Part shown: positions 6,598-33,430 of the stretch, piece by piece | Numbering within the stretch: position 1 is the stretch's first letter | How the letters are laid out: every line of letters starts with the position of its first letter | NCBI RefSeq assembly: GCF_013315695.1 | Contig: NZ_CP054353.1 | DNA length: 64,000 nucleotides | Source: Escherichia coli | GTDB taxonomy: Bacteria; Pseudomonadota; Gammaproteobacteria; Enterobacterales; Enterobacteriaceae | Direction: 5' to 3' (one strand) | Notes under the pieces: generated by a model | Databases searched by the model: none | Seen by the model: only the letters and a program-made list of their open reading frames with translations | What the model was told of the DNA's origin: nothing | Made by a program: the position numbers and the translations under genes

Positions 6598-6652
6598 GGT
6601 GATGCTGCCAACTTACTGATTTAGTGTATGATGGTGTTTTTGAGGTGCTCCA

Positions 6653-6928
6653 GTGGCTTCTGTTTCTATCAGCTGTCCCTCCTGTTCAGCTACTGACGGG
6701 GTGGTGCGTAACGGCAAAAGCACCGCCGGACATCAGCGCTATCTCTGCTCTCACTGCCGTAAAACATGGCAACTGCAGTTCACTTACACCGCTTCTCAAC
6801 CCGGTACGCACCAGAAAATCATTGATATGGCCATGAATGGCGTTGGATGCCGGGCAACAGCCCGCATTATGGGCGTTGGCCTCAACACGATTTTACGTCA
6901 CTTAAAAAACTCAGGCCGCAGTCGGTAA
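6653..6928 (+). CDS. insA: IS1 InsA (transposition inhibitor / N-terminal part of InsAB transposase)
   Basis: 91-aa [42 protein letters not shown]..., zinc-finger CxxC...CxxC; A6C slippery site ttaaaaaac near its 3-prime end. Confidence 0.95.
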
Positions 6929-7350
6929 CCTCGCGCATACAGCCGGGCAGTGACGTCATCGTCTGCGCGGAAATGGACGAACAGTGGGGCTATGTCGGGG
7001 CTAAATCGCGCCAGCGCTGGCTGTTTTACGCGTATGACAGGCTCCGGAAGACGGTTGTTGCGCACGTATTCGGTGAACGCACTATGGCGACGCTGGGGCG
7101 TCTTATGAGCCTGCTGTCACCCTTTGACGTGGTGATATGGATGACGGATGGCTGGCCGCTGTATGAATCCCGCCTGAAGGGAAAGCTGCACGTAATCAGC
7201 AAGCGATATACGCAGCGAATTGAGCGGCATAACCTGAATCTGAGGCAGCACCTGGCACGGCTGGGACGGAAGTCGCTGTCGTTCTCAAAATCGGTGGAGC
7301 TGCATGACAAAGTCATCGGGCATTATCTGAACATAAAACACTATCAATAA
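6847..7350 (+). CDS. insB: IS1 InsB frame (expressed as InsAB by -1 frameshift)
   Basis: 167-aa ORF in -1 frame relative to insA, ending ...HYLNIKHYQ. Confidence 0.9.
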
Positions 7351-7505
7351 GTTGGAGTCATTACCACTTGAACCGATAATAAACGCAGAAATTCTATTTT
7401 GTAGCTCATTGTTGCCTCCTGTGTGAATTGTTCGAATCTACCAGGCTGCGATGAAAGAAGTCGTGTAGTAGAGAGCTATACCCGCAACAAGCGGGGCAGA
7501 CGTTC

Positions 7506-10865: not shown

Positions 10866-11855
10866 ATGAAACTCGCCGTTTATAGCACAAAACAGTACGA
10901 CAAGAAGTACCTGCAACAGGTGAACGAGTCCTTTGGCTTTGAGCTGGAATTTTTTGACTTTCTGCTGACGGAAAAAACCGCTAAAACTGCCAATGGCTGC
11001 GAAGCGGTATGTATTTTCGTAAACGATGACGGCAGCCGCCCGGTGCTGGAAGAGCTGAAAAAGCACGGCGTTAAATATATCGCCCTGCGCTGTGCCGGTT
11101 TCAATAACGTCGACCTTGACGCGGCAAAAGAACTGGGGCTGAAAGTAGTCCGTGTTCCAGCCTATGATCCAGAAGCCGTTGCTGAACACGCCATCGGTAT
11201 GATGATGACGCTGAACCGCCGTATTCACCGCGCGTATCAGCGTACCCGTGACGCCAACTTCTCTCTGGAAGGTCTGACCGGCTTTACTATGTATGGCAAA
11301 ACGGCAGGCGTTATCGGTACCGGTAAAATCGGTGTGGCGATGCTGCGCATTCTGAAAGGTTTTGGTATGCGTCTGCTGGCGTTCGATCCGTATCCAAGTG
11401 CGGCGGCGCTGGAACTCGGTGTAGAGTATGTCGATCTGCCAACCCTGTTCTCTGAATCAGACGTTATCTCTCTGCACTGCCCGCTGACACCGGAAAACTA
11501 CCACCTGTTGAACGAAGCCGCCTTCGATCAGATGAAAAATGGCGTGATGATCGTCAATACCAGTCGCGGTGCATTGATTGATTCTCAGGCAGCAATTGAA
11601 GCGCTGAAAAATCAGAAAATTGGTTCGTTGGGTATGGACGTGTATGAAAACGAACGCGATCTGTTCTTTGAAGATAAATCCAACGACGTAATCCAGGATG
11701 ACGTATTCCGTCGTCTGTCTGCCTGCCACAACGTGCTGTTTACCGGGCACCAGGCATTCCTGACAGCAGAAGCTCTGACCAGTATTTCTCAGACTACGCT
11801 GCAAAACTTAAGCAATCTGGAAAAAGGCGAAACCTGCCCGAACGAACTGGTTTAA
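10866..11855 (+). CDS. ldhA: Fermentative D-lactate dehydrogenase (NAD-dependent)
   Basis: 329-aa ORF MKLAVYSTKQYDKKYLQQVNESFGFELEFF... with GxGxxG NAD-binding motif (GVIGTGKIG). Confidence 0.97.
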   Translation: MKLAVYSTKQYDKKYLQQVNESFGFELEFFDFLLTEKTAKTANGCEAVCIFVNDDGSRPVLEELKKHGVKYIALRCAGFNNVDLDAAKELGLKVVRVPAYDPEAVAEHAIGMMMTLNRRIHRAYQRTRDANFSLEGLTGFTMYGKTAGVIGTGKIGVAMLRILKGFGMRLLAFDPYPSAAALELGVEYVDLPTLFSESDVISLHCPLTPENYHLLNEAAFDQMKNGVMIVNTSRGALIDSQAAIEALKNQKIGSLGMDVYENERDLFFEDKSNDVIQDDVFRRLSACHNVLFTGHQAFLTAEALTSISQTTLQNLSNLEKGETCPNELV

Positions 11856-16581: not shown

Positions 16582-16838
16582 CCGCGAAGAATAACGCATC
16601 ACTATTTAAATGTATAATTTTTATTTTGTATATGTCGCCAACAATATATTCACCAGACTTATTATCATTTCAGAAGAATTATTTGATTAAGGTTTTACTT
16701 AAGGCGTAACAAATAATATTTATCGTCTAACTGAACTTCTCCTTTAGGATGCTTTCACTCCCCGAAATGGGGATAAAAGGCAAGGTGATGCTGCCAACTT
16801 ACTGATTTAGTGTATGATGGTGTTTTTGAGGTGCTCCA

Positions 16839-17114
16839 GTGGCTTCTGTTTCTATCAGCTGTCCCTCCTGTTCAGCTACTGACGGGGTGGTGCGTAACGG
16901 CAAAAGCACCGCCGGACATCAGCGCTATCTCTGCTCTCACTGCCGTAAAACATGGCAACTGCAGTTCACTTACACCGCTTCTCAACCCGGTACGCACCAG
17001 AAAATCATTGATATGGCCATGAATGGCGTTGGATGCCGGGCAACAGCCCGCATTATGGGCGTTGGCCTCAACACGATTTTACGTCACTTAAAAAACTCAG
17101 GCCGCAGTCGGTAA
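16839..17114 (+). CDS. insA: IS1 InsA
   Basis: 91-aa ORF identical to the InsA of copy 1. Confidence 0.95.
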
Positions 17115-17536
17115 CCTCGCGCATACAGCCGGGCAGTGACGTCATCGTCTGCGCGGAAATGGACGAACAGTGGGGCTATGTCGGGGCTAAATCGCGCCAG
17201 CGCTGGCTGTTTTACGCGTATGACAGGCTCCGGAAGACGGTTGTTGCGCACGTATTCGGTGAACGCACTATGGCGACGCTGGGGCGTCTTATGAGCCTGC
17301 TGTCACCCTTTGACGTGGTGATATGGATGACGGATGGCTGGCCGCTGTATGAATCCCGCCTGAAGGGAAAGCTGCACGTAATCAGCAAGCGATATACGCA
17401 GCGAATTGAGCGGCATAACCTGAATCTGAGGCAGCACCTGGCACGGCTGGGACGGAAGTCGCTGTCGTTCTCAAAATCGGTGGAGCTGCATGACAAAGTC
17501 ATCGGGCATTATCTGAACATAAAACACTATCAATAA
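17033..17536 (+). CDS. insB: IS1 InsB frame
   Basis: 167-aa ORF identical to the InsB of copy 1. Confidence 0.9.
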
Positions 17537-17551
17537 GTTGGAGTCATTACC

Positions 17552-22966: not shown

Positions 22967-23077
22967 CACAACATCCGAGGGCAGCATTGTCCGCTAGTAC
23001 ACTGCAGTCCAGAAAGTCATGGGCGGACGTTGGGAGGAGGCGCTAATCCTTTCATACAAAAAATATGTAAAATCAAT

Positions 23078-23150
23078 AACGGCTGTAAATCATTCAATAC
23101 TCGCACTATCGGAAGTTCACCAGCCAGCCGCAGCACGTTCTTGCATACGA
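23078..23150. repeat. Diverged direct repeat, left copy (3-prime end of a small membrane-protein gene plus downstream sequence)
   Basis: aatcattcaatactcgcactatcg matches 24557..24580 at 22/24; similarity continues through cttgcatacgacgtg. Reverse strand encodes ...LALSIVIGGLVKLKPQTRRMQERAAAGW* with no start codon. Confidence 0.5.
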
Positions 23151-23417
23151 CGTGTCTGCGGTTTCAACTTCACCAGTCCACCAATCACGATGGACAGTGC
23201 CAAGACAGCACTAGCAAAAACAGGAAATTAGCAGTCTCAGCAGAACACCGACCAGACGGTGAAGAAACAAAAAAGGATACGCAAAGGGGCCGCAGTTCCC
23301 GATTGATAAAAAAGCCAGCTTATGCGCTTTTTTTTCATGTATTATTAAGTATTGGTTAGCGTCTTTTTAATCAGAACTTTAAAGACAAGCCATTTGTAAG
23401 AAAACCGACAGATTCGG

Positions 23418-24233
23418 TTGACAAGCAGGAGTAATACTTTGGACATAAGAAAAGATTTGGAATCAGTAGCCCAATATATAAGTAGACTGTTATCGATAGG
23501 GTACGAATTTAGCCGTTTTGATAAAGACTGGGTCCATTTAAAAAATGAAGAGGATTTTCGTTTTATTTCAAGAATACCATTTGCAACACGGAATAAAGTG
23601 GAAGCAGTATATGCGGAAGGCAGAGATATGGCACTTTATATGTCTGATGAGTTACTATCCATTAATAGTGATTTCAGTAAATTTCCAACGTTGACAGCTA
23701 TTATCGAAAGATTCAAGGACACTTGGGTTTATGGTAATTATGATTCGGAAGTGCCAAATATAGCTAAAAAAACATGCGAAGAAAATGCAGTTCAGCTTTG
23801 GTCTGTAGAACAGATGTGTTCCTTATTCAAAAAGCAAGAACAACTATTAGCAGCAGTACGTATCACATTGCAGATGCTACAAGATAGTGACCTATACAAG
23901 ATGGAGAATGGTTTACCTCTTATGAAACAAGAAGCTAATATTCATGTCAGTGGAATTTCCGGTTCTAGTATCAATATACATTCTTCAGGTGCTACGGCAA
24001 CTACTACGACAAATTATAATGAGCCCACAATATTTAATGAAATGATTGAGGCAATAAAATCGAAAAACTTTGATGGCGCGACAGAATCACACCTTATAGA
24101 TAATGTACAGGCACTGGCAGCCAGTCACCAAAGCGGCTGTTTTAAAGAAGCATATAAGGACTTTATTAATAATGTATCTGCACACATTACAGTATTTACT
24201 CCATTTCTTGCTGGCATATCATCTTTACTATAA
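23418..24233 (+). CDS. Orphan hypothetical protein in AT-rich islet (function unknown)
   Basis: 271-aa ORF from the track; no in-frame ATG near the 5-prime end, likely start TTG at 23439 with AGGAG 8 nt upstream; AT-rich codon usage unlike flanking genes; C-terminal low-complexity Ser/Thr stretch and hydrophobic tail. Confidence 0.5.
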   Translation: MTSRSNTLDIRKDLESVAQYISRLLSIGYEFSRFDKDWVHLKNEEDFRFISRIPFATRNKVEAVYAEGRDMALYMSDELLSINSDFSKFPTLTAIIERFKDTWVYGNYDSEVPNIAKKTCEENAVQLWSVEQMCSLFKKQEQLLAAVRITLQMLQDSDLYKMENGLPLMKQEANIHVSGISGSSINIHSSGATATTTTNYNEPTIFNEMIEAIKSKNFDGATESHLIDNVQALAASHQSGCFKEAYKDFINNVSAHITVFTPFLAGISSLL

Positions 24234-24556
24234 AATAAGTGACAGATACATTAATACATAACGAAAAATCTTTTTAGCTACTCATTCATATCAATAGTGC
24301 CCTACCATAGGGCACATTATTCGTGGAACTCGTTTATGACAAAAGAATTTTGATGGTCTGCCTGATGCAACAGATATAATTCTGGGAGTGTTGAGTAAGA
24401 GTATTCACCGGCGCTCAACACAAATGCCAGCAAGCACGAGAAAGAGCAGGTAAGCCTGAGTGTTCAGGAAATGTTTGAAAAGGCTAATATGTGGCTGGTT
24501 TCAGATTAAACGCCTTGAACCGTCATATTACTTAAGTACAATCCGCCTAGACTAGC

Positions 24557-24630
24557 AATCATTCAATAGTAGCACTATCGAGCGCTCGCCAGTCGAGCGC
24601 AATCATGCTCCTTGCATACGGCGTGCAGCA
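24557..24630. repeat. Diverged direct repeat, right copy
   Basis: aatcattcaatagtagcactatcg ... cttgcatacggcgtg; partner of 23078..23150. Confidence 0.5.
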
Positions 24631-24778
24631 TATCACAAAACGATTACGCCATGACGGACTGCAGGCTACTCAATATCTGGCTCGATTAGCGTATTGGCAT
24701 GATTTAACAGACCCCGGCGCTTATTCCCAGCAACCTGAAGCGGCACCTCTTCCTGTGTTGCGTTTACAACTCCCTTTT

Positions 24779-25072
24779 TCACCCACGATTAACCAACAGC
24801 CAGACCAGCAGACAAGCCACCACCGGCACAGAAAAATCCATCAGGCTTGCCACATCCCACACGCGCGGATCAAAACCACCCCACCACGGCATATTCATAC
24901 GCTTGCCATGCCCGAACATTTCAATCCAGCGATATTCTGCCTGGGTATGTTCACGAGCAATGAAGAACGTACAACCGGCTATCGCCCCGTAAGCCCAGTT
25001 TCCGGTAAAAAGACCAACCAGTACCTGCGCAGCCACAGCACAAAGTGCATGAAGGAAAGGTGTTATATCCAT
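24779..25072 (-). CDS. Small hydrophobic (probable inner-membrane) protein, function unknown
   Basis: ORF track 24779..25087; ATG at 25070-25072 preceded by AGGA; MDITPFLHALCAVAAQVLVGLF... with about three predicted TM segments; its C-terminus is homologous to the fragment encoded by the left direct repeat. Confidence 0.5.
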   Translation of the reverse strand: MDITPFLHALCAVAAQVLVGLFTGNWAYGAIAGCTFFIAREHTQAEYRWIEMFGHGKRMNMPWWGGFDPRVWDVASLMDFSVPVVACLLVWLLVNRG

Positions 25073-25148
25073 TTTCATCCTACCCAATAAAACGAGGCGC
25101 TCGGCCCCTTAATATTATTTAGACGCAAGCGTCGGTAATGACTCCAAC

Positions 25149-25652
25149 TTATTGATAGTGTTTTATGTTCAGATAATGCCCGATGACTTTGTCATGCAGC
25201 TCCACCGATTTTGAGAACGACAGCGACTTCCGTCCCAGCCGTGCCAGGTGCTGCCTCAGATTCAGGTTATGCCGCTCAATTCGCTGCGTATATCGCTTGC
25301 TGATTACGTGCAGCTTTCCCTTCAGGCGGGATTCATACAGCGGCCAGCCATCCGTCATCCATATCACCACGTCAAAGGGTGACAGCAGGCTCATAAGACG
25401 CCCCAGCGTCGCCATAGTGCGTTCACCGAATACGTGCGCAACAACCGTCTTCCGGAGCCTGTCATACGCGTAAAACAGCCAGCGCTGGCGCGATTTAGCC
25501 CCGACATAGCCCCACTGTTCGTCCATTTCCGCGCAGACGATGACGTCACTGCCCGGCTGTATGCGCGAGGTTACCGACTGCGGCCTGAGTTTTTTAAGTG
25601 ACGTAAAATCGTGTTGAGGCCAACGCCCATAATGCGGGCTGTTGCCCGGCAT
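25149..25652 (-). CDS. insB: IS1 InsB frame
   Basis: 167-aa ORF identical to the other InsB copies. Confidence 0.9.
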
Positions 25653-25846
25653 CCAACGCCATTCATGGCCATATCAATGATTTTCTGGTGCGTACCGGGT
25701 TGAGAAGCGGTGTAAGTGAACTGCAGTTGCCATGTTTTACGGCAGTGAGAGCAGAGATAGCGCTGATGTCCGGCGGTGCTTTTGCCGTTACGCACCACCC
25801 CGTCAGTAGCTGAACAGGAGGGACAGCTGATAGAAACAGAAGCCAC
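25571..25846 (-). CDS. insA: IS1 InsA
   Basis: 91-aa ORF identical to the other InsA copies. Confidence 0.95.
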
Positions 25847-25925
25847 TGGAGCACCTCAAAAACACCATCATACACTAAATCAGTAAGTTGGCAGCATCAC
25901 CCCCGGCGTTAAGGGGAGAGATAAG

Positions 25926-26060
25926 ATGGTGCATTACGAAGTAGTTCAGTATTTGATGGATTGTTGCGGTATCACTTACAACCAGGCTGTGCAGGCTTTA
26001 CGCAGCAACGCCTGGGATCTCTGGCAGGCAGAAGTCGCTATACGTAGCAACAAGATGTGA
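25926..26060 (+). CDS. ydaG: Rac-prophage small protein (YdaG-like, 44 aa)
   Basis: Below the ORF-track cutoff; ATG 25926 to TGA 26058-26060 encodes MVHYEVVQYLMDCCGITYNQAVQALRSNAWDLWQAEVAIRSNKM; assigned by size and position next to sieB. Confidence 0.5.
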   Translation: MVHYEVVQYLMDCCGITYNQAVQALRSNAWDLWQAEVAIRSNKM

Positions 26061-26070
26061 GATTCGCAAA

Positions 26071-26226
26071 ATGCAAAAAATCGACCTCGGCAACAACGAA
26101 TCCCTGGTGTGCGGCGTGTTCCCCAACCAGGATGGAACGTTCACTGCCATGACGTATACCAAAAGCAAAACATTTAAAACCGAAACTGGTGCGCGCCGAT
26201 GGTTGGAGAAGCACACAGTAAGCTAA
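26071..26226 (+). CDS. ydaF: Rac-prophage small protein (YdaF-like, 51 aa)
   Basis: Below the ORF-track cutoff; ATG 26071 to TAA 26224-26226 encodes MQKIDLGNNESLVCGVFPNQDGTFTAMTYTKSKTFKTETGARRWLEKHTVS; convergent with sieB. Confidence 0.5.
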   Translation: MQKIDLGNNESLVCGVFPNQDGTFTAMTYTKSKTFKTETGARRWLEKHTVS

Positions 26227-26711
26227 CGATTAAAACGTCTACTCCTGCTGTTCCAGAATAACTTCATAAAATGGGAGTATTTTTCGGTGACGAGATAATA
26301 AGAACAGTTTGCGCTATCACTCTGATGTTGAATGATGCCCTTCCGTTCTAATTTTTTCATAACCGGGTTACGGCAAGGAGAAGTGATAATAAGATTTCCT
26401 GTTTTAAGGAAATCTTTAAATACAGCGATTTCTTTCTCAGATAAACGAAGCAATACTCGTTGCTCTGGTAGTAATGAATAATGCTTTTGAATATGTGCTC
26501 GCAATCTTGAGAAGGAAATGGCGACCACGAAAGAAAAGGCAAAAACGATAATCTGAAAGAGCCAAGGTATTTCAGTATAAGCATTGAATGCGACAGTAAA
26601 CTCTTTCGGTATCAGCCAGAGAGTGAGACCAAAAATGATAATCGTATACATAAGTCTTTCGAGTGGCTCGTTAGCAAAAAGTTTCAATAATGGAGTAGAT
26701 ACATCCAACAT
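26223..26711 (-). CDS. sieB: Superinfection exclusion protein B
   Basis: ORF track 26223..26834; ATG at 26709-26711 gives MLDVSTPLLKLFANEPLERLMYTIIIFGLTLWLIP... (162 aa) with two TM helices. Confidence 0.85.
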   Translation of the reverse strand: MLDVSTPLLKLFANEPLERLMYTIIIFGLTLWLIPKEFTVAFNAYTEIPWLFQIIVFAFSFVVAISFSRLRAHIQKHYSLLPEQRVLLRLSEKEIAVFKDFLKTGNLIITSPCRNPVMKKLERKGIIQHQSDSANCSYYLVTEKYSHFMKLFWNSRSRRFNR

Positions 26712-27151
26712 ATCAATAACTCTCAACTGTAAGGGTATTGAAATGTTAACACAAGCTCTCGCTGTAGGGGTATAGCCGAGACCACCGAAGCCCGGAGGTG
26801 GTGAAATAAAACCGGGCACAACACGAAGGCGCATTTCCGATATCCATAAAGAGTCGGTCTTGTCTGTTAAATTTAAATGGTGGGAGTGCGCCTCCGGTTG
26901 TAAATAACGACATTGCTGTGTGTAGTCCTGGCGGCATCAGTTTTTTCTTGAAGTTCGGCTGATGTCCGCCCTTTTTTAAGTGAATTTTGTGATGCGGTGA
27001 ATGCGGCTAAGCGCACGTGGCACAGTTAAAAGTCATGTTAGTCCTTATTGGTTTGGGTGGGAAAGCCGACTGTAATTGTTAACTGGTTGCAGTCACCTGG
27101 AGGCACCAGGCACCGCATCAACAAAGTTCATTTGTAAAAATGGAGATAATT

Positions 27152-27373
27152 ATGATTGCACATCACTTCGGAACTGATGAAATACCACGTCAGTGTGTGA
27201 CTCCTGGCGATTATGTTCTTCATGAAGGCCGGACATATATTGCCTCGGCAAACAATATTAAAAAGCGAAAACTATATATTCGTAACCTGACCACAAAAAC
27301 ATGCATTACTGACCGCATGATTAAAGTCTTCCTCGGTCGTGATGGTTTACCTGTAAAGGCGGAGTCATGGTGA
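27152..27373 (+). CDS. kilR: Rac-prophage killing protein KilR (FtsZ inhibitor)
   Basis: ORF track 27140..27373; ATG at 27152 after GGAG gives [42 protein letters not shown]... (73 aa). Confidence 0.9.
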
Positions 27374-27543
27374 TGACTAAGAAAATAAAATGTGCTTACC
27401 ACCTTTGCAAAAAAGACGTTGAAGAAAGCAAAGCTATTGAAAGAATGCTTCACTTCATGCACGGGATTTTATCAAAAGACGAACCGAGAAAATATTGCAG
27501 TGAATCTTGTGCCGAAAAAGACCAGATGGCACATGAACTTTAA
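27373..27543 (+). CDS. ydaE: Rac-prophage small zinc-binding protein YdaE
   Basis: Below the ORF-track cutoff; ATG overlaps the kilR TGA (TGATG); [56 protein letters not shown] (56 aa) with a Cys-rich motif. Confidence 0.7.
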   Translation: MTKKIKCAYHLCKKDVEESKAIERMLHFMHGILSKDEPRKYCSESCAEKDQMAHEL

Positions 27544-27617
27544 TTAATTGACTATTCGAAACTGAATTTATGCCAGAAATGGCAGGTATTCGCTCAACCT
27601 TAATTAAGGAGAAAAAC

Positions 27618-27893
27618 ATGATTACCAATTATGAAGCCACTGTTGTAACTACCGATGACATTGTTCACGAGGTGAATCTGGAAGGAAAGCGCATTGGCTA
27701 CGTAATTAAAACAGAAAATAAAGAAACCCCATTCACTGTGGTTGATATCGATGGTCCATCAGGCAACGTAAAAACACTTGATGAAGGTGTCAAAAAAATG
27801 TGCCTGGTGCATATCGGAAAGAATCTGCCCGCAGAAAAAAAAGCCGAATTTCTGGCAACTCTAATTGCAATGAAATTAAAAGGTGAAATCTGA
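27618..27893 (+). CDS. racC: Rac-prophage protein RacC
   Basis: ORF track 27570..27893; ATG at 27618 gives MITNYEATVVTTDDIVHEVNLEGKRIGYVIKTENKETPF... (91 aa). Confidence 0.85.
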   Translation: MITNYEATVVTTDDIVHEVNLEGKRIGYVIKTENKETPFTVVDIDGPSGNVKTLDEGVKKMCLVHIGKNLPAEKKAEFLATLIAMKLKGEI

Positions 27894-27994
27894 AAGAAAT
27901 AGCCTGCGTATGGCGCAGGCTATGAACAGTGTGTATCCGGCAAGATCATTCACTGAACAAAACGAATTTTAATCTGAGTTGAGGTTAAAAAACA

Positions 27995-30595
27995 ATGAGC
28001 ACAAAACCACTCTTCCTGTTACGGAAAGCGAAAAAATCATCCGGTGAACCTGACGTCGTCCTGTGGGCAAGCAACGATTTTGAATCGACCTGTGCCACTC
28101 TGGACTACCTGATCGTTAAGTCAGGTAAAAAACTGAGCAGCTATTTTAAAGCTGTTGCCACGAATTTTCCTGTCGTTAATGACCTGCCCGCTGAAGGTGA
28201 GATCGATTTTACCTGGAGTGAACGCTATCAACTCAGCAAAGACTCCATGACATGGGAACTAAAACCGGGAGCAGCACCAGACAACGCTCACTATCAAGGC
28301 AATACCAACGTCAACGGCGAAGACATGACTGAGATTGAGGAGAATATGCTACTCCCAATTTCTGGCCAGGAACTGCCCATTCGTTGGCTTGCTCAACACG
28401 GCAGCGAAAAACCGGTAACGCACGTTTCACGCGACGGACTCCAGGCATTACACATTGCTCGGGCTGAAGAACTACCGGCTGTTACTGCCCTGGCTGTTTC
28501 CCACAAAACCAGCCTGCTCGACCCGCTGGAAATTCGCGAACTCCACAAACTGGTTCGTGACACTGACAAAGTTTTCCCTAATCCTGGTAATTCAAACCTG
28601 GGACTGATAACTGCTTTTTTCGAAGCATACCTGAACGCTGACTACACCGATCGAGGACTGCTGACAAAAGAGTGGATGAAGGGTAATCGTGTTTCACACA
28701 TCACTCGCACGGCTTCCGGTGCTAATGCTGGCGGCGGAAACCTCACCGATCGCGGCGAAGGTTTCGTACACGATCTGACGTCACTGGCGCGCGACGTAGC
28801 CACTGGCGTACTGGCCCGTTCAATGGATCTGGACATCTATAACCTTCATCCGGCACACGCTAAACGCATTGAGGAAATTATCGCTGAAAATAAACCGCCC
28901 TTTTCTGTTTTCCGCGACAAATTCATCACCATGCCTGGCGGGCTGGATTATTCCCGCGCCATCGTGGTTGCGTCCGTAAAAGAAGCACCAATTGGGATCG
29001 AGGTCATCCCCGCGCACGTCACTGAATATCTGAACAAAGTACTGACTGAAACCGATCATGCCAACCCTGATCCGGAAATCGTGGATATTGCCTGCGGTCG
29101 CTCCTCTGCCCCGATGCCGCAGCGAGTAACAGAAGAAGGAAAACAGGATGATGAAGAAAAACCGCAACCATCTGGAACAACGGCAGTTGAACAGGGAGAG
29201 GCTGAAACAATGGAACCGGACGCAACTGAACATCATCAGGACACGCAGCCGCTGGATGCTCAGTCACAGGTAAATTCTATTGATGCGAAATATCAGGAAC
29301 TGCGGGCAGAACTCCATGAAGCCCGGAAAAACATTCCATCAAAAGATCCTGTCGATGCCGATAAATTGCTTGCTGCATCACGTGGTGAATTTGTTGACGG
29401 AATTAGCGACCCGAACGATCCGAAATGGGTAAAGGGGATCCAGACTCGCGATTGTGTGTACCAGAACCAGCCAGAAACGGAAAAAACCAGCCCGGATATG
29501 AATCAACCTGAGCCAGTAGTGCAACAGGAACCGGAAATAGCCTGCAATGCCTGCGGCCAGACTGGCGGGGATAACTGCCCTGACTGTGGTGCGGTGATGG
29601 GCGACGCAACATACCAGGAAACATTCGATGAAGAGAGTCAGGTTGAAGCTAAGGAAAATGATCCGGAGGAAATGGAAGGCGCTGAACATCCGCACAATGA
29701 GAATGCTGGCAGCGATCCGCATCGCGATTGCAGTGATGAAACTGGCGAAGTCGCAGATCCCGTAATCGTAGAAGACATAGAGCCAGGTATTTATTACGGA
29801 ATTTCGAATGAGAATTACCACGCGGGTCCCGGTGTCAGTAAGTCTCAGCTCGATGACATTGCTGATACTCCGGCACTATATTTGTGGCGTAAAAATGCCC
29901 CCGTTGACACCACAAAGACAAAAACGCTCGATTTAGGAACCGCTTTCCACTGCCGGGTACTTGAACCGGAAGAATTCAGTAACCGCTTTATCGTAGCACC
30001 TGAATTTAACCGCCGTACAAACGCCGGAAAAGAAGAAGAGAAAGCGTTTCTGATGGAATGCGCAAGCACAGGAAAAACAGTTATCACTGCGGAAGAAGGC
30101 CGGAAAATTGAACTCATGTATCAAAGCGTTATGGCTTTGCCGCTGGGGCAATGGCTTGTTGAAAGCGCCGGACACGCTGAATCATCAATTTACTGGGAAG
30201 ATCCTGAAACAGGAATTTTGTGTCGGTGCCGTCCGGACAAAATTATCCCTGAATTTCACTGGATCATGGACGTGAAAACTACGGCGGATATTCAACGATT
30301 CAAAACCGCTTATTACGACTACCGCTATCACGTTCAGGATGCATTCTACAGTGACGGTTATGAAGCACAGTTTGGAGTGCAGCCAACTTTCGTTTTTCTG
30401 GTTGCCAGCACAACTATTGAATGCGGACGTTATCCGGTTGAAATTTTCATGATGGGCGAAGAAGCAAAACTGGCAGGTCAACAGGAATATCACCGCAATC
30501 TGCGAACCCTGTCTGACTGCCTGAATACCGATGAATGGCCAGCTATTAAGACATTATCACTGCCCCGCTGGGCTAAGGAATATGCAAATGACTAA
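27995..30595 (+). CDS. recE: Exodeoxyribonuclease VIII (RecE)
   Basis: 866-aa [44 protein letters not shown]...; full length with the C-terminal nuclease domain; overlaps the recT start by 8 nt. Confidence 0.95.
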
Positions 30596-31397
30596 GCAAC
30601 CACCAATCGCAAAAGCCGATCTGCAAAAAACTCAGGGAAACCGTGCACCAGCAGCAGTTAAAAATAGCGACGTGATTAGTTTTATTAACCAGCCATCAAT
30701 GAAAGAGCAACTGGCAGCAGCTCTTCCACGCCATATGACGGCTGAACGTATGATCCGTATCGCCACCACAGAAATTCGTAAAGTTCCGGCGTTAGGAAAC
30801 TGTGACACTATGAGTTTTGTCAGTGCGATCGTACAGTGTTCACAGCTCGGACTTGAGCCAGGTAGCGCCCTCGGTCATGCATATTTACTGCCTTTTGGTA
30901 ATAAAAACGAAAAGAGCGGTAAAAAGAACGTTCAGCTAATCATTGGCTATCGCGGCATGATTGATCTGGCTCGCCGTTCTGGTCAAATCGCCAGCCTGTC
31001 AGCCCGTGTTGTCCGTGAAGGTGACGAGTTTAGCTTCGAATTTGGCCTTGATGAAAAGTTAATACACCGCCCGGGAGAAAACGAAGATGCCCCGGTTACC
31101 CACGTCTATGCTGTCGCAAGACTGAAAGACGGAGGTACTCAGTTTGAAGTTATGACGCGCAAACAGATTGAGCTGGTGCGCAGCCTGAGTAAAGCTGGTA
31201 ATAACGGGCCGTGGGTAACTCACTGGGAAGAAATGGCAAAGAAAACGGCTATTCGTCGCCTGTTCAAATATCTGCCCGTATCAATTGAGATCCAGCGTGC
31301 AGTATCAATGGATGAAAAGGAACCACTGACAATCGATCCTGCAGATTCCTCTGTATTAACCGGGGAATACAGTGTAATCGATAATTCAGAGGAATAA
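30588..31397 (+). CDS. recT: Single-strand annealing recombinase RecT
   Basis: ORF track 30531..31397; ATG at 30588 gives [35 protein letters not shown]... (269 aa). Confidence 0.95.
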
Positions 31398-31453
31398 TTC
31401 AGCCTGGCGGTGTAATGCACCGCCAACTTGAAATATTTTTTATGAGAAAAATT

Positions 31454-31648
31454 ATGAGATATGACAATGTTAAACCATGTCCATTTTGTGGTTGTCCATC
31501 AGTAACGGTGAAAGTCATTTCAGGATATTACCGAGCGAAGTGTAACGGATGCGAATCCCGAACCGGTTATGGTGGAAGTGAAAAAGAAGCACTCGAAAGA
31601 TGGAATAAACGAACCACTGGAAATAATAACGGAGGTGTTCATGTATAA
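31454..31648 (+). CDS. ralR: Restriction-alleviation protein / type I toxin RalR (Lar)
   Basis: ORF track 31415..31648; ATG at 31454 gives MRYDNVKPCPFCGCPSVTVKVISGYYRAKCNGCESRTGYGG... (64 aa). Confidence 0.85.
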   Translation: MRYDNVKPCPFCGCPSVTVKVISGYYRAKCNGCESRTGYGGSEKEALERWNKRTTGNNNGGVHV

Positions 31649-31829
31649 AATTACCGCCACTATTGAAAAGGAAGGTGGCACTCCTACTAACTGGACAAGA
31701 TATTCAAAATCTAAACTAACGAAATCAGAATGCGAAAAAATGCTCTCAGGTAAAAAAGAAGCAGGCGTTTCCAGAGAGCAGAAAGTAAAACTGATAAATT
31801 TTAATTGCGAGAAACTTCAGTCCTCGTGA
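31641..31829 (+). CDS. ydaC: Rac-prophage protein YdaC
   Basis: ORF track 31569..31829; ATG at 31641 (GGAGG upstream) gives MYKITATIEKEGGTPTNWTRYSKSKL... (62 aa); overlaps the ralR 3-prime end by 8 nt. Confidence 0.7.
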   Translation: MYKITATIEKEGGTPTNWTRYSKSKLTKSECEKMLSGKKEAGVSREQKVKLINFNCEKLQSS

Positions 31830-31928
31830 ATTGCATTGTATTCAAATTAAAACTTCATAGCTGATTATTAATAATCAACATCGGGCGTCAATTTCAGTCT
31901 AACATTGGCGCCTGCCAGAGGTGATGCG

Positions 31929-32144
31929 ATGGCACAAGTAATCTTTAATGAAGAGTGGATGGTTGAATACGGCCTGATGCTTCGCACTGGTCTGGGGGCC
32001 AGACAAATTGAAGCATACCGCCAGAACTGTTGGGTGGAGGGCTTCCACTTCAAACGAGTATCTCCTTTAGGTAAGCCAGACAGCAAACGAGGGATTATCT
32101 GGTACAACTATCCAAAGATAAATCAGTTTATCAAAGACTCATGA
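31929..32144 (+). CDS. xisR: Rac-prophage excisionase
   Basis: ORF track 31905..32144; ATG at 31929 gives [44 protein letters not shown]... (71 aa); stop overlaps the intR start region. Confidence 0.8.
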
Positions 32145-32145
32145 T

Positions 32146-33379
32146 ATGTCTAAATTACCAACAGGTGTCGAGATTAGAGGTAGATACATTCGCATCTGGT
32201 TCATGTTTCGAGGAAAACGATGTCGGGAAACATTAAAAGGCTGGGAGATTACAAACAGTAATATTAAAAAGGCCGGAAATTTAAGAGCGCTGATAGTTCA
32301 TGAAATAAACTCCGGTAAATTTGAGTATTTAAGACGTTTTCCCCAGTCCAGCACTGGGGCAAAAATGGTGATAACGAGAGTCATAAAAACGTTCGGAGAG
32401 CTTTGTGATATCTGGACAAAAATTAAAGAGACAGAGTTAACAACAAACACAATAAAGAAAACGAAATCACAATTAAAAACACTCAGAATAATAATTTGTG
32501 AAAGTACCCTGATATCACATATTCGTTATAGCGATATCTTAAACTACCGGAATGAACTGCTGCATGGAGAAACGCTTTACCTGGATAATCCAAGATCCAA
32601 CAAAAAAGGAAGAACCGTGCGCACAGTTGATAACTATATCGCCCTGCTCTGTTCGCTGTTACGTTTTGCGTATCAGTCGGGATTTATATCAACCAAACCA
32701 TTTGAAGGAGAAAAAATTACAGCGAAACAGAATAAAGCCTGATCCGTTATCTAAAACAGAATTCAATGCATTAATGGAAAGTGAAAAAGGACAGAGCCAG
32801 AACATGTGGAAATTTGCAGTTTACTCAGGACTTCGTCACGGGGAACTGGCAGCTCTGGCGTGGGAGGATGTGGATCTCGAAAAGGGAATAGTGAATGTCA
32901 GAAGAAACCTGACGATACTTGATATGTTCGGTCCCCCAAAAACAAATGCCGGGATCCGGACAGTAACACTACTGCAGCCTGCTCTTGAAGCACTGAAGGA
33001 GCAATACAAACTGACCGGGCATCATCGCAAAAGCGAAATCACCTTTTATCATCGGGAGTACGGCAGAACCGAAAAGCAAAAACTGCATTTTGTTTTCATG
33101 CCCAGGGTGTGTAACGGAAAACAAAAACCTTATTACTCGGTAAGCAGTTTGGGGGCAAGGTGGAATGCAGCAGTAAAACGTGCTGGTATTCGCCGCCGTA
33201 ATCCGTACCATACGCGGCATACTTTTGCCTGCTGGCTGTTGACGGCAGGAGCGAACCCGGCATTTATAGCCAGCCAAATGGGGCATGAAACTGCGCAGAT
33301 GGTGTATGAAATTTACGGTATGTGGATTGATGACATGAACGACGAACAGATAGCCATGTTGAATGCGCGGTTATCATAG
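32146..33379 (+). pseudogene. intR: Rac-prophage tyrosine integrase, apparently split by a +/-1 frameshift near 32709-32716
   Basis: ORF 32146..32742 (198 aa, ...STKPFEGEKITAKQNKA*) and ORF 32552..33379 carry the N- and C-terminal parts (catalytic ...HTRHTFACWLL...) in adjacent frames; frames switch in the run gagaaaaaatt; the sum of the parts is about 411 codons. Confidence 0.7.
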
Positions 33380-33430
33380 TTGCAAAGTTTGCCCCCAATT
33401 TGCCCCATTTAGTACCAGAGAACTGAAATA

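Follow-up and report, generated by a model that had tools for sequence, protein, structure and literature searches.

A PHROG 1443 membrane protein gene at the tail-fiber end of an IS1-truncated Rac-type prophage in Escherichia coli

The 97-amino-acid (97-aa) open reading frame (ORF) located at 24779..25072, on the minus strand of the 64,000-nucleotide stretch of Escherichia coli DNA analyzed here (contig NZ_CP054353.1; hereafter, the window), is a genuine gene, already catalogued, of the uncharacterized family PHROG 1443. Within a lambdoid, Rac-type prophage integrated at ttcA, it closes the late region and stands at the end of the tail-fiber module; only a remnant of this prophage, which carries sitABCD, is present here, its whole late region having been lost. 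We are highly confident of this identity and context. Across the family, one feature is constant: the gene is placed immediately 3' of receptor-binding protein genes. As an explanation of the whole, to which we tentatively give slightly less than an even chance, we propose that the ORF is a stranded tail-module gene whose product is an accessory inner-membrane factor.

The gene assignment draws on the ORF call and its translation, the RefSeq coding sequence, the match to PHROG 1443, an AlphaFold2 model, and clusters of homologs. The ORF is intact, from an ATG at 25072 to a stop codon at 24779-24781, and an alternative in-frame TTG start at 25087, 5' of the ATG, would yield 102 aa. Its product is identical to RefSeq WP_001405873.1, annotated as a "hypothetical protein," and the window DNA is 100% identical to that of E. 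coli MSB1_4I. The match to the PHROG 1443 hidden Markov model is full length (E = 7.2e-59), with residues 1-96 falling on positions 1-96 of the 97-position profile. Hydropathy analysis delimits two hydrophobic blocks, residues 4-39 and 74-96, and the AlphaFold2 model, built with 29 homologs (mean pLDDT 95, pTM 0.80), predicts helices at residues 4-23, 26-53, and 74-96. An earlier note on this DNA had described a small hydrophobic three-helix protein, which the intact ORF and the three helices of the model bear out, and had placed it in a prophage, in agreement with the PHROG 1443 match and the prophage context.

Beyond PHROG 1443, searches with the ORF product yielded little. The homolog search matched no housekeeping membrane protein. 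Pfam gave only subthreshold matches, to the transmembrane (TM) hairpins PhoR_N and VirB3, which recur in 7 and 6, respectively, of 110 family members and reflect composition only. The NCBIfam and PADLOC searches gave no match, and the sequence-profile search of the PDB returned nothing significant, with a single match at E = 0.5. No fold match was obtained. Neither the accessions nor the PHROG number is mentioned in any paper found; Mathieu et al. (2020) reported sitABCD and many membrane-protein morons in gut lambdoid phages, and the 97-aa gene is not discussed there. The svsR small RNA of prophage NC-SV sits in cI and is unrelated to the ORF.

The family is widespread. Its gene is found in 2067 of the 5426 complete E. 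coli genomes (38%), carriers having a median of two copies and a maximum of eight. A word-indexed search at 90% identity recovered 570 clusters, none of them bearing a name, whose members come from Escherichia, Shigella, Salmonella, Citrobacter, Enterobacter, Leclercia, Aeromonas, and Comamonas, while an exhaustive profile search of 1.84 billion representatives recovered 540 clusters at 50% identity. The best 150 of these 540 relatives, of 66 to 147 aa, all stand alone, none being fused to a known domain. Carriers of the family include lambdoid, P22-like, P2-like, and jumbo phages, and its members come from at least five bacterial genera. The homolog of phage 21, CPT_21_24 ("putative membrane protein," UMO75439.1), shares 95% amino acid identity with the ORF product.

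Sequence comparisons within the family point to constraint on the protein. Fifty distinct E. coli-type alleles show, relative to the window allele, 406 synonymous and 209 nonsynonymous codon differences, which indicates purifying selection. Among 110 representatives sharing at most 50% identity, residues R40, E41, Q44, W72, and P83 are invariant, H8, A45, E46, and R58 reach at least 90% conservation, and D79 comes close to this level; the invariance persists down to about 30% identity in the 540 clusters. The core motif of the family reads H...[GA]RE(H)xQAEYRW...PWWGGFD.R.W...D...P, and alignment shows that the ORF product carries all of the conserved family residues (H8, R40, E41, Q44, E46, W72, D79, and P83).

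The distribution of charges suggests how the protein lies in the membrane. Across 181 members, the N-terminal tail and the loop spanning residues 40-73 together carry a mean of 5.9 lysine and arginine residues, versus 0.64 for the TM1-TM2 turn and the C-terminal tail. The latter has a mean length of 3.4 residues, of which 0.5 is lysine or arginine, and the ORF product ends in ...LLVNRG. According to the positive-inside rule, this bias would place the N terminus inside and the 40-73 loop at the cytoplasmic face. The protein would thus start in the cytoplasm, form a TM1-TM2 hairpin with a tight periplasmic turn, and cross the membrane again through TM3, leaving about three C-terminal residues outside, and the conserved amphipathic helix and Trp-rich loop would be positioned at the cytoplasmic face of the inner membrane. 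In this arrangement, H8, R40/E41, and D79 are predicted to lie at similar depth near the cytoplasmic leaflet, and H8, A12, and Q16 would make one face of TM1. This clustering of polar residues suggests a polar pocket rather than a mere structural membrane anchor.

The position next to receptor-binding genes recurs in one carrier after another. In phage 21, a side tail fiber gene is followed by a 92-aa gene and the family gene, which is convergent with sitD. The start of the family gene overlaps the tailspike stop codon in the P22-like phage JEP4, where int comes next, and a tail-fiber assembly gene overlaps it in the Halomonas myovirus phiHAP-1, where the sheath gene comes next. Aeromonas P2-like prophages have the order Baseplate_J, Tail_P2_I, a fiber of 875-964 aa, and the family gene, and a Comamonas prophage has J, a 72-aa gene, and the family gene. 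The same post-fiber position is seen in a phage-plasmid and in the Rac prophage of E. coli B. The receptor-binding types found upstream are the P22 Head_binding tailspike, the S74 self-chaperoning fiber, the Laminin_G side fiber, and J.

Larger samples gave the same picture. In 78 of 80 E. coli-type viral contigs from IMG/VR, a same-strand ORF ends just upstream of the family gene, and in 76 of these 78 it is one of three fiber-module genes, the others being an IS1 transposase ORF and a fiber-gene fragment. We also assembled a distant set of 33 metagenomic clusters at about 30 to 45% identity, 32 of which have upstream sequence; a same-strand ORF of at least 378 aa occupies one of the two upstream slots in 26 of the 32, and the PHROG matches upstream are mostly to tail fiber, tailspike, and tail families. 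Downstream genes in these clusters are heterogeneous, the 65 neighbors examined including head scaffolding and major head genes, four endolysins, one holin, and others. As a side observation, an 89- to 93-aa protein, phrog_1361 (starting with MKDLTLKF), is encoded between successive fiber genes, just upstream of the family gene; the phrog_1361 gene is present in nearly all E. coli lambdoid prophages examined (e.g., NZ_CP023820 locus 11266-11547, locus L003 3710-3988, and loci L012-L091).

Comparison between phages delimits the exchanged module. When the fiber genes differ, DNA similarity starts at the ATG or at most 9 nucleotides (nt) before it and stops about 30 nt after the stop codon, and P22-like and lambdoid copies of the family gene, although set in unrelated flanks, are 82 to 86% identical. 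In the window, the 5' limit of this mosaic module, read from the sequence and from the between-phage comparison, is the ribosome-binding region (25073..25081, minus strand), with AGGATGAAA before the ATG. Since the shared module, composed of the ribosome-binding site and the ORF, begins no more than 9 nt before the ATG, it has no room for a promoter of its own. The start of the family gene overlaps the stop of the upstream gene in several phages, including overlaps of 4 nt, and no promoter-like site was found on the minus strand between 24200 and 25300. For these reasons we rejected the possibility of a moron, which would carry its own promoter and terminator within the module.

Expression of the gene would therefore depend on its neighbors. 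An intrinsic-terminator-like hairpin followed by a T-run (25094..25108, minus strand) is found in the sequence between the fiber stop codon and the ORF, and it forms a perfect stem in an IS1-free relative. Because this hairpin precedes the ribosome-binding site, transcription of the ORF would need antiterminated late transcription. In intact phages, the family gene would be expressed only late, from the late operon, together with fibers or tailspikes. In the window, the IS1-linked loss of the upstream operon leaves the ORF intact and severed from the late promoter; this copy is probably silent, its operon having been lost.

Not all carriers have kept the gene in working order. Unannotated copies that have decayed through in-frame stops lie directly after the tailspike genes of two virulent phages, HC6 (locus L092, 3501-3659) and the Salmonella Kuttervirus KFSST3 (locus L094, 3001-3156). 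The gene is thus not needed to make those receptor-binding proteins, nor for lytic growth, and the decayed copies are consistent with receptor-binding cassettes that HC6 and KFSST3 acquired from temperate phages. They also bear on the idea that the protein could be an assembly factor or chaperone for the adjacent fiber or tailspike, by analogy with Tfa, gp38, and P2 G, which are encoded just 3' of fiber genes. The strictly conserved place immediately 3' of receptor-binding genes and the translational coupling through 4-nt overlaps in several phages speak for such a role, which we nevertheless hold to be very improbable: the product is an integral membrane protein with hardly any soluble domain, the upstream receptor-binding proteins are structurally unrelated, decayed copies stand behind the HC6 and KFSST3 tailspike genes, stand-alone chromosomal copies have no fiber gene nearby, and the family gene is missing from many phages with the same fiber types.

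The stand-alone copies are found in several Aeromonas species, in a conserved, nonphage chromosomal context (loci L010 and L180-L183, 4001-4309). The order there is polB, a 270-aa gene, pirin, the family gene, a PA4780-type RIO1-like kinase, and two MsbB-like lipid A acyltransferases, with a 130-nt spacer upstream of the family gene. This Aeromonas copy appears to be domesticated, and its stand-alone state implies that the protein can act on its own in a cell. A link to the neighboring RIO1-like kinase as a lipopolysaccharide kinase was considered and dismissed, as this is a PA4780-family protein kinase. Taken together, the purifying selection, the deep residue invariance, and the Aeromonas chromosomal copies speak for a biochemical function under selection in the family, even should the window copy be silent.

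The same observations make it quite improbable, in our estimate, that the gene is a largely selfish or neutral hitchhiker on the receptor-binding gene, the most frequently exchanged phage cassette, with the window copy being a silent relic. Such a history would fit the mosaic boundaries, which fall exactly at gene ends, and the similarity of P22-like and lambdoid copies between unrelated flanks, as well as the decayed copies in virulent phages and, in the window, the deleted late promoter region and the terminator-like hairpin before the ORF. It fits poorly with purifying selection among E. coli alleles, with residues that stay invariant to about 30% identity, and with chromosomal copies conserved across Aeromonas species.

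How the protein might work is more doubtful than the explanation as a whole. We regard as possible, with more reserve, a mechanism in which an accessory inner-membrane factor acts on a conserved envelope component through its polar pocket. The protein would insert in the inner membrane as the TM1-TM2 hairpin followed by TM3, bringing the polar cluster (H8, R40, E41, Q44, E46, W72, D79, and P83) and the Trp-rich amphipathic loop to the cytoplasmic leaflet. In intact phages, it would be made from the late operon alongside fibers or tailspikes, and, being accessory and dispensable for virion assembly, it would bind or modify a conserved inner-membrane or lipid-linked component of the envelope. 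The phage might benefit through the exclusion of further infection or through altered receptor or envelope biogenesis.

Several points weigh against this proposal. No homology to any characterized protein, whether in Pfam, NCBIfam, PADLOC, the PDB, or fold comparisons, stands behind the proposed activity. Expression from the late operon only would leave little time for exclusion or envelope remodeling to pay; lysogenic or early expression is the rule for classical exclusion genes. While the adjacent receptor-binding proteins vary greatly, the protein itself is strongly conserved, which counts against any receptor-specific masking. The GenBank note on the phage 21 homolog gives two TM segments with both termini inside (TMHMM) and a 29-aa signal peptide (SignalP), which would make the conserved loop periplasmic, opposite to the charge-based topology. 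Moreover, an intact 87-aa version is kept in Aeromonas jumbo phages, presumed virulent from their genome size, and in two distant phages the family gene is inside or beside the lysis cassette.

This last point raises the question of lysis. In the Comamonas prophage, the family gene directly precedes genes for two TM proteins, a putative SLT-like endolysin (phrog_3108), and spanins of the Rz/Rz1 type; in Aeromonas phage 62AhydR11PP it comes after a gene of this putative endolysin family and one for a Gly-rich TM protein. We note in passing that phrog_3108, listed with "unknown function," carries an SLT-like GLQESR...FWQFE motif and lies between TM proteins and Rz/Rz1-like ORFs (locus L009, 6300-8033, in the Comamonas prophage; locus L005, 1554-3001, in Aeromonas phage 62AhydR11PP); it probably constitutes an endolysin family that has gone unannotated.

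The product could accordingly be read as an accessory holin, an antiholin, or a modulator of lysis timing made from the end of the late operon. The small size, the three membrane helices, and the predicted late expression would suit such a role, as would the lysis-gene neighbors in these two phages and the four endolysins and one holin among the 65 downstream neighbors; T7 gp17.5 and T4 T are holins that also come after tail-fiber genes. We nonetheless find this reading unlikely. Coliphages such as phage 21 and P22-like phages have a complete lysis cassette elsewhere, and downstream lysis genes occur at about 15% of loci, near chance adjacency. The C-terminal tail, of about three residues, is not highly charged, unlike those of holins, and an R-E-x-x-Q-x-E motif invariant across genera is rare in holins. 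No holin family of Pfam or PHROG matched above noise, the only hit being that of 1 of 110 members to Phage_holin_8 (E = 0.0036), and the stand-alone Aeromonas chromosomal copies are hard to explain by lysis. A classical holin role therefore fits the ORF product only partly.

A bolder reading, which we consider distinctly unlikely, is that PHROG 1443 represents a previously unrecognized class of miniature inner-membrane enzymes or ligand-binding proteins. Its invariant pocket (H, R-E-x-x-Q-x-E, W, D, P) would be located at the cytoplasmic leaflet and act on a universal lipid-linked envelope precursor, for which an undecaprenyl-phosphate (Und-P)-linked glycan and a lipid A/core intermediate are candidate substrates. 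Action on an envelope precursor would explain both why the gene travels with receptor-binding genes across many types of phage and why it was domesticated in Aeromonas beside lipid A acyltransferase genes.

We next turn to the state of the locus in the window, where an IS1A element of 768 bp with its transposase on the minus strand (25134..25901, from the annotation and the flank comparison) lies 61 nt upstream of the ATG of the ORF, an adjacency that the earlier note had recorded correctly. The end of IS1A abuts a stub that comprises the last 19 nt of a fiber gene, codons TLASK plus the stop (25115..25133, minus strand), as recognized by comparison with NZ_CP023820. Its source is a 346-aa tail-fiber gene with a Peptidase_S74 chaperone domain; the remainder of this gene and the entire late region are absent from the window. 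The 9-bp flanks of IS1A are unlike each other (GCAAGCGTC versus CCCGGCGTT), so that no target duplication is present, and the element joins the fiber stub to a Rac-type early region (44-aa ORF, ydaF, sieB, kilR, recE). This junction was found in only 2 of the 5426 complete E. coli genomes.

The annotated order runs from ttcA through intR (frameshifted), xisR, ralR, recT, recE, racC, ydaE, kilR, sieB, ydaF, the 44-aa ORF, and IS1A to the ORF, and continues beyond it with a frameshifted dinI-like gene, a 264-aa orphan ORF, sitDCBA, uspF, and ompN. Hundreds of IS1-free genomes have, at the same locus, sitABCD, a hypothetical ORF, the dinI pseudogene, and the ORF, followed upstream on the same strand by the 346-aa S74 fiber gene, a 93-aa gene, more fiber genes, Lom, and J. 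The simplest reading is that an IS1-mediated deletion, or recombination between IS1 copies, took out the late genes. Three 100%-identical IS1A copies lie within 19 kb (6598-7365, 16784-17551, and 25134-25901), near ydbL, between ompN and nifJ, and in the prophage, respectively. They point to a recent IS1 expansion in the strain and are substrates for further deletions.

These data also settle how the ORF relates to IS1. The earlier note had considered the ORF as the target of the insertion, and the element sits instead in the last codons of the upstream tail-fiber gene. It had alternatively considered the ORF as IS1 cargo, which is contradicted by a plain 768-bp IS1 with differing flanks and by the presence of the same locus in hundreds of IS1-free genomes. 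Cargo of an IS1 composite transposon was likewise rejected, the other IS1 copies being 7.6 kb and 17.8 kb off, beyond core genes (uspF, ompN, and nifJ).

A further claim concerned a diverged 3' paralog fragment of the ORF at 23107..23220 on the minus strand. Examination by blastn, tblastn, Smith-Waterman alignment, and stop codon content showed this segment to be unrelated to the ORF, its similarity being at chance level. Compared with the whole window by blastn (word size 7) and tblastn (E up to 1000), the ORF had no match in 23000-23420. The best protein Smith-Waterman score against the three minus frames of 23095-23235 was 26, against a null of 23.5 ± 3.9 from same-size random fragments of the window, 26% of which reach that score. 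At the nucleotide level, the local score was 21 (null, 16.7 ± 2.4; reached by 6% of random fragments), in an alignment that is out of register and pairs non-matching ends. Stop codons interrupt all three minus frames.

The segment is instead a patchwork of scar-like DNA. On one side, 23013-23145 is about 80% identical to a piece of phage 21 upstream of sitA (ORF CPT_21_29); we observed that this piece is here downstream of sitD and inverted relative to sit, and the sequence suggests a repeat that may once have flanked the sit cassette. On the other side, 23158..23335 (plus strand) is, by sequence comparison, a degenerate copy of the ssrA 3' end, of the attachment-site type, with 84% identity to the last 28 nt of E. 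coli ssrA and the following 155 nt, including the ssrA terminator. The copy is part of a noncoding element, and E. coli genomes have related sequence at a median of four places each. Judged from its sequence, 23158-23335 looks like the scar of an ssrA-integrating element, inside prophage DNA near sitD.

We accordingly give almost no credence to the reading advanced in the earlier note as a whole, in which a duplicated membrane-protein gene, or a type I toxin-like gene, was the target or cargo of IS1 and left a truncated copy at 23107-23220. The adjacent IS1 and a hydrophobic run in the minus-strand translation of 23107-23220 are in its favor. Against it, the similarity is at chance level in a region made of the ssrA-like scar and the sit-flank patch, no duplication or paralog is present, IS1 cuts the fiber gene, the ORF is at the same place in IS1-free genomes, and no antisense or toxin-antitoxin RNA of Rfam reached threshold. 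The only Rfam matches were two subthreshold ones, CssrB at 23.4 bits (gathering cutoff 76) and IS009 at 19.9 bits (gathering cutoff 117). A type I toxin resembling Hok, Ldr, or TisB, i.e., a single-TM protein of less than 60 aa with a cis-antisense RNA, was discarded on the grounds of the 97-aa length, the three helices, and the lack of Rfam support.

The surroundings of the ORF hold further features. Between the ORF and sitD is a 1.76-kb segment (22987..24747) that is absent from phage 21, in which the ORF homolog is directly convergent with sitD; it contains the ssrA-like scar, a low-GC orphan ORF, and the frameshifted dinI-like gene. The orphan ORF encodes 264 aa (WP_000354607.1; 23439-24233, plus strand), with a GC content of 0.36 versus 0.49 for the window. 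Pfam, PHROG, and NCBIfam gave no match for it, and PADLOC gave only a weak one, to the candidate defense protein PDC-M14B (E = 0.0017). The frameshifted dinI-like pseudogene (approximately 24323-24509, plus strand) lies between the orphan ORF and the 97-aa gene and is preceded by a terminator-like hairpin at 24297-24315. A functional tie of the ORF to sitABCD was rejected, as the two adjoin only in lambdoid coliphages; P22-like, P2-like, and other phages with the family gene lack this arrangement. Directly beyond IS1, a 44-aa ORF (WP_001571370.1; 25926-26060, plus strand) belongs to phrog_14709 and shows a borderline UBA-like match (PF14555, 21.7 bits versus a cutoff of 21.8). The Rac-type early region, approximately 25900-33400, keeps kilR, sieB, ralR, recET, racC, ydaE, and ydaF, with intR frameshifted and the late genes gone, and is a typical "domesticated" Rac core.

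By itself, the window locus is an ordinary IS1-truncated prophage end and matters little. The family is worth study, since it is carried by about one-third of complete E. coli genomes, often in several prophages each, it retains an invariant polar motif, and its tightest linkage is to receptor-binding genes. Should a phenotype be found, be it exclusion, an envelope change, or an effect on lysis timing, thousands of "hypothetical proteins" would be annotated. There is a possible bearing on engineered receptor-binding cassettes, which often carry the family gene along.

Comparison with known systems helps to place the protein. Its nearest counterpart in our set is CPT_21_24 of phage 21, a member of the same family in the same place after fiber genes beside sitABCD; the differences are confined to the local context, the window having IS1 and a deletion upstream and the 1.76-kb insert downstream. 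Small seroconversion factors encoded beside tailspike genes, P22 GtrA, epsilon15 gp22, and D3 Iap, act on Und-P-linked O-antigen assembly. They resemble the PHROG 1443 protein as small hydrophobic inner-membrane proteins encoded next to tailspikes, but they share no homology with it and are expressed in lysogens, whereas PHROG 1443 is also found in phages plating on rough K-12 strains and beside protein-binding fibers. T5 llp, located next to pb5, and cor of T1, phi80, and N15 encode receptor-blocking outer-membrane lipoproteins specific for FhuA. They share the genetic linkage to a receptor-binding protein gene, but the PHROG 1443 protein lacks a lipobox, would by the predicted topology leave almost nothing exposed to the periplasm, and is conserved beside very different receptor-binding proteins.

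Class I holins (lambda S105), T7 gp17.5, and T4 T are alike in size, helical membrane character, late expression, and sometimes post-fiber position. PHROG 1443 differs from them in lacking a charged C-terminal tail, in its strongly conserved polar motif, and in matching no holin family, and, compared with class I holins, in having no endolysin or spanin neighbor in the window, the IS1-free E. coli prophages, phage 21, JEP4, or phiHAP-1. The exclusion proteins HK97 gp15, P22 SieA, and T4 Imm, for whose activity we rely on PMC3594210, PMC10883804, and general knowledge, are likewise small integral inner-membrane proteins dispensable for virion production, and the gp15 gene, too, lies among tail genes. 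Neither sequence nor fold similarity to these three was detected, and PADLOC gave no match, exclusion proteins being a class without a shared sequence signature; in addition, gp15 is a moron that lysogens express from a promoter of its own, whereas the PHROG 1443 module has no room for a promoter. PHROG 1443 is the sole membership that can be demonstrated for the ORF product, which belongs to none of these groups; its closest functional analogs would be the small accessory membrane-protein genes that phages carry at the receptor-binding end of their genomes.

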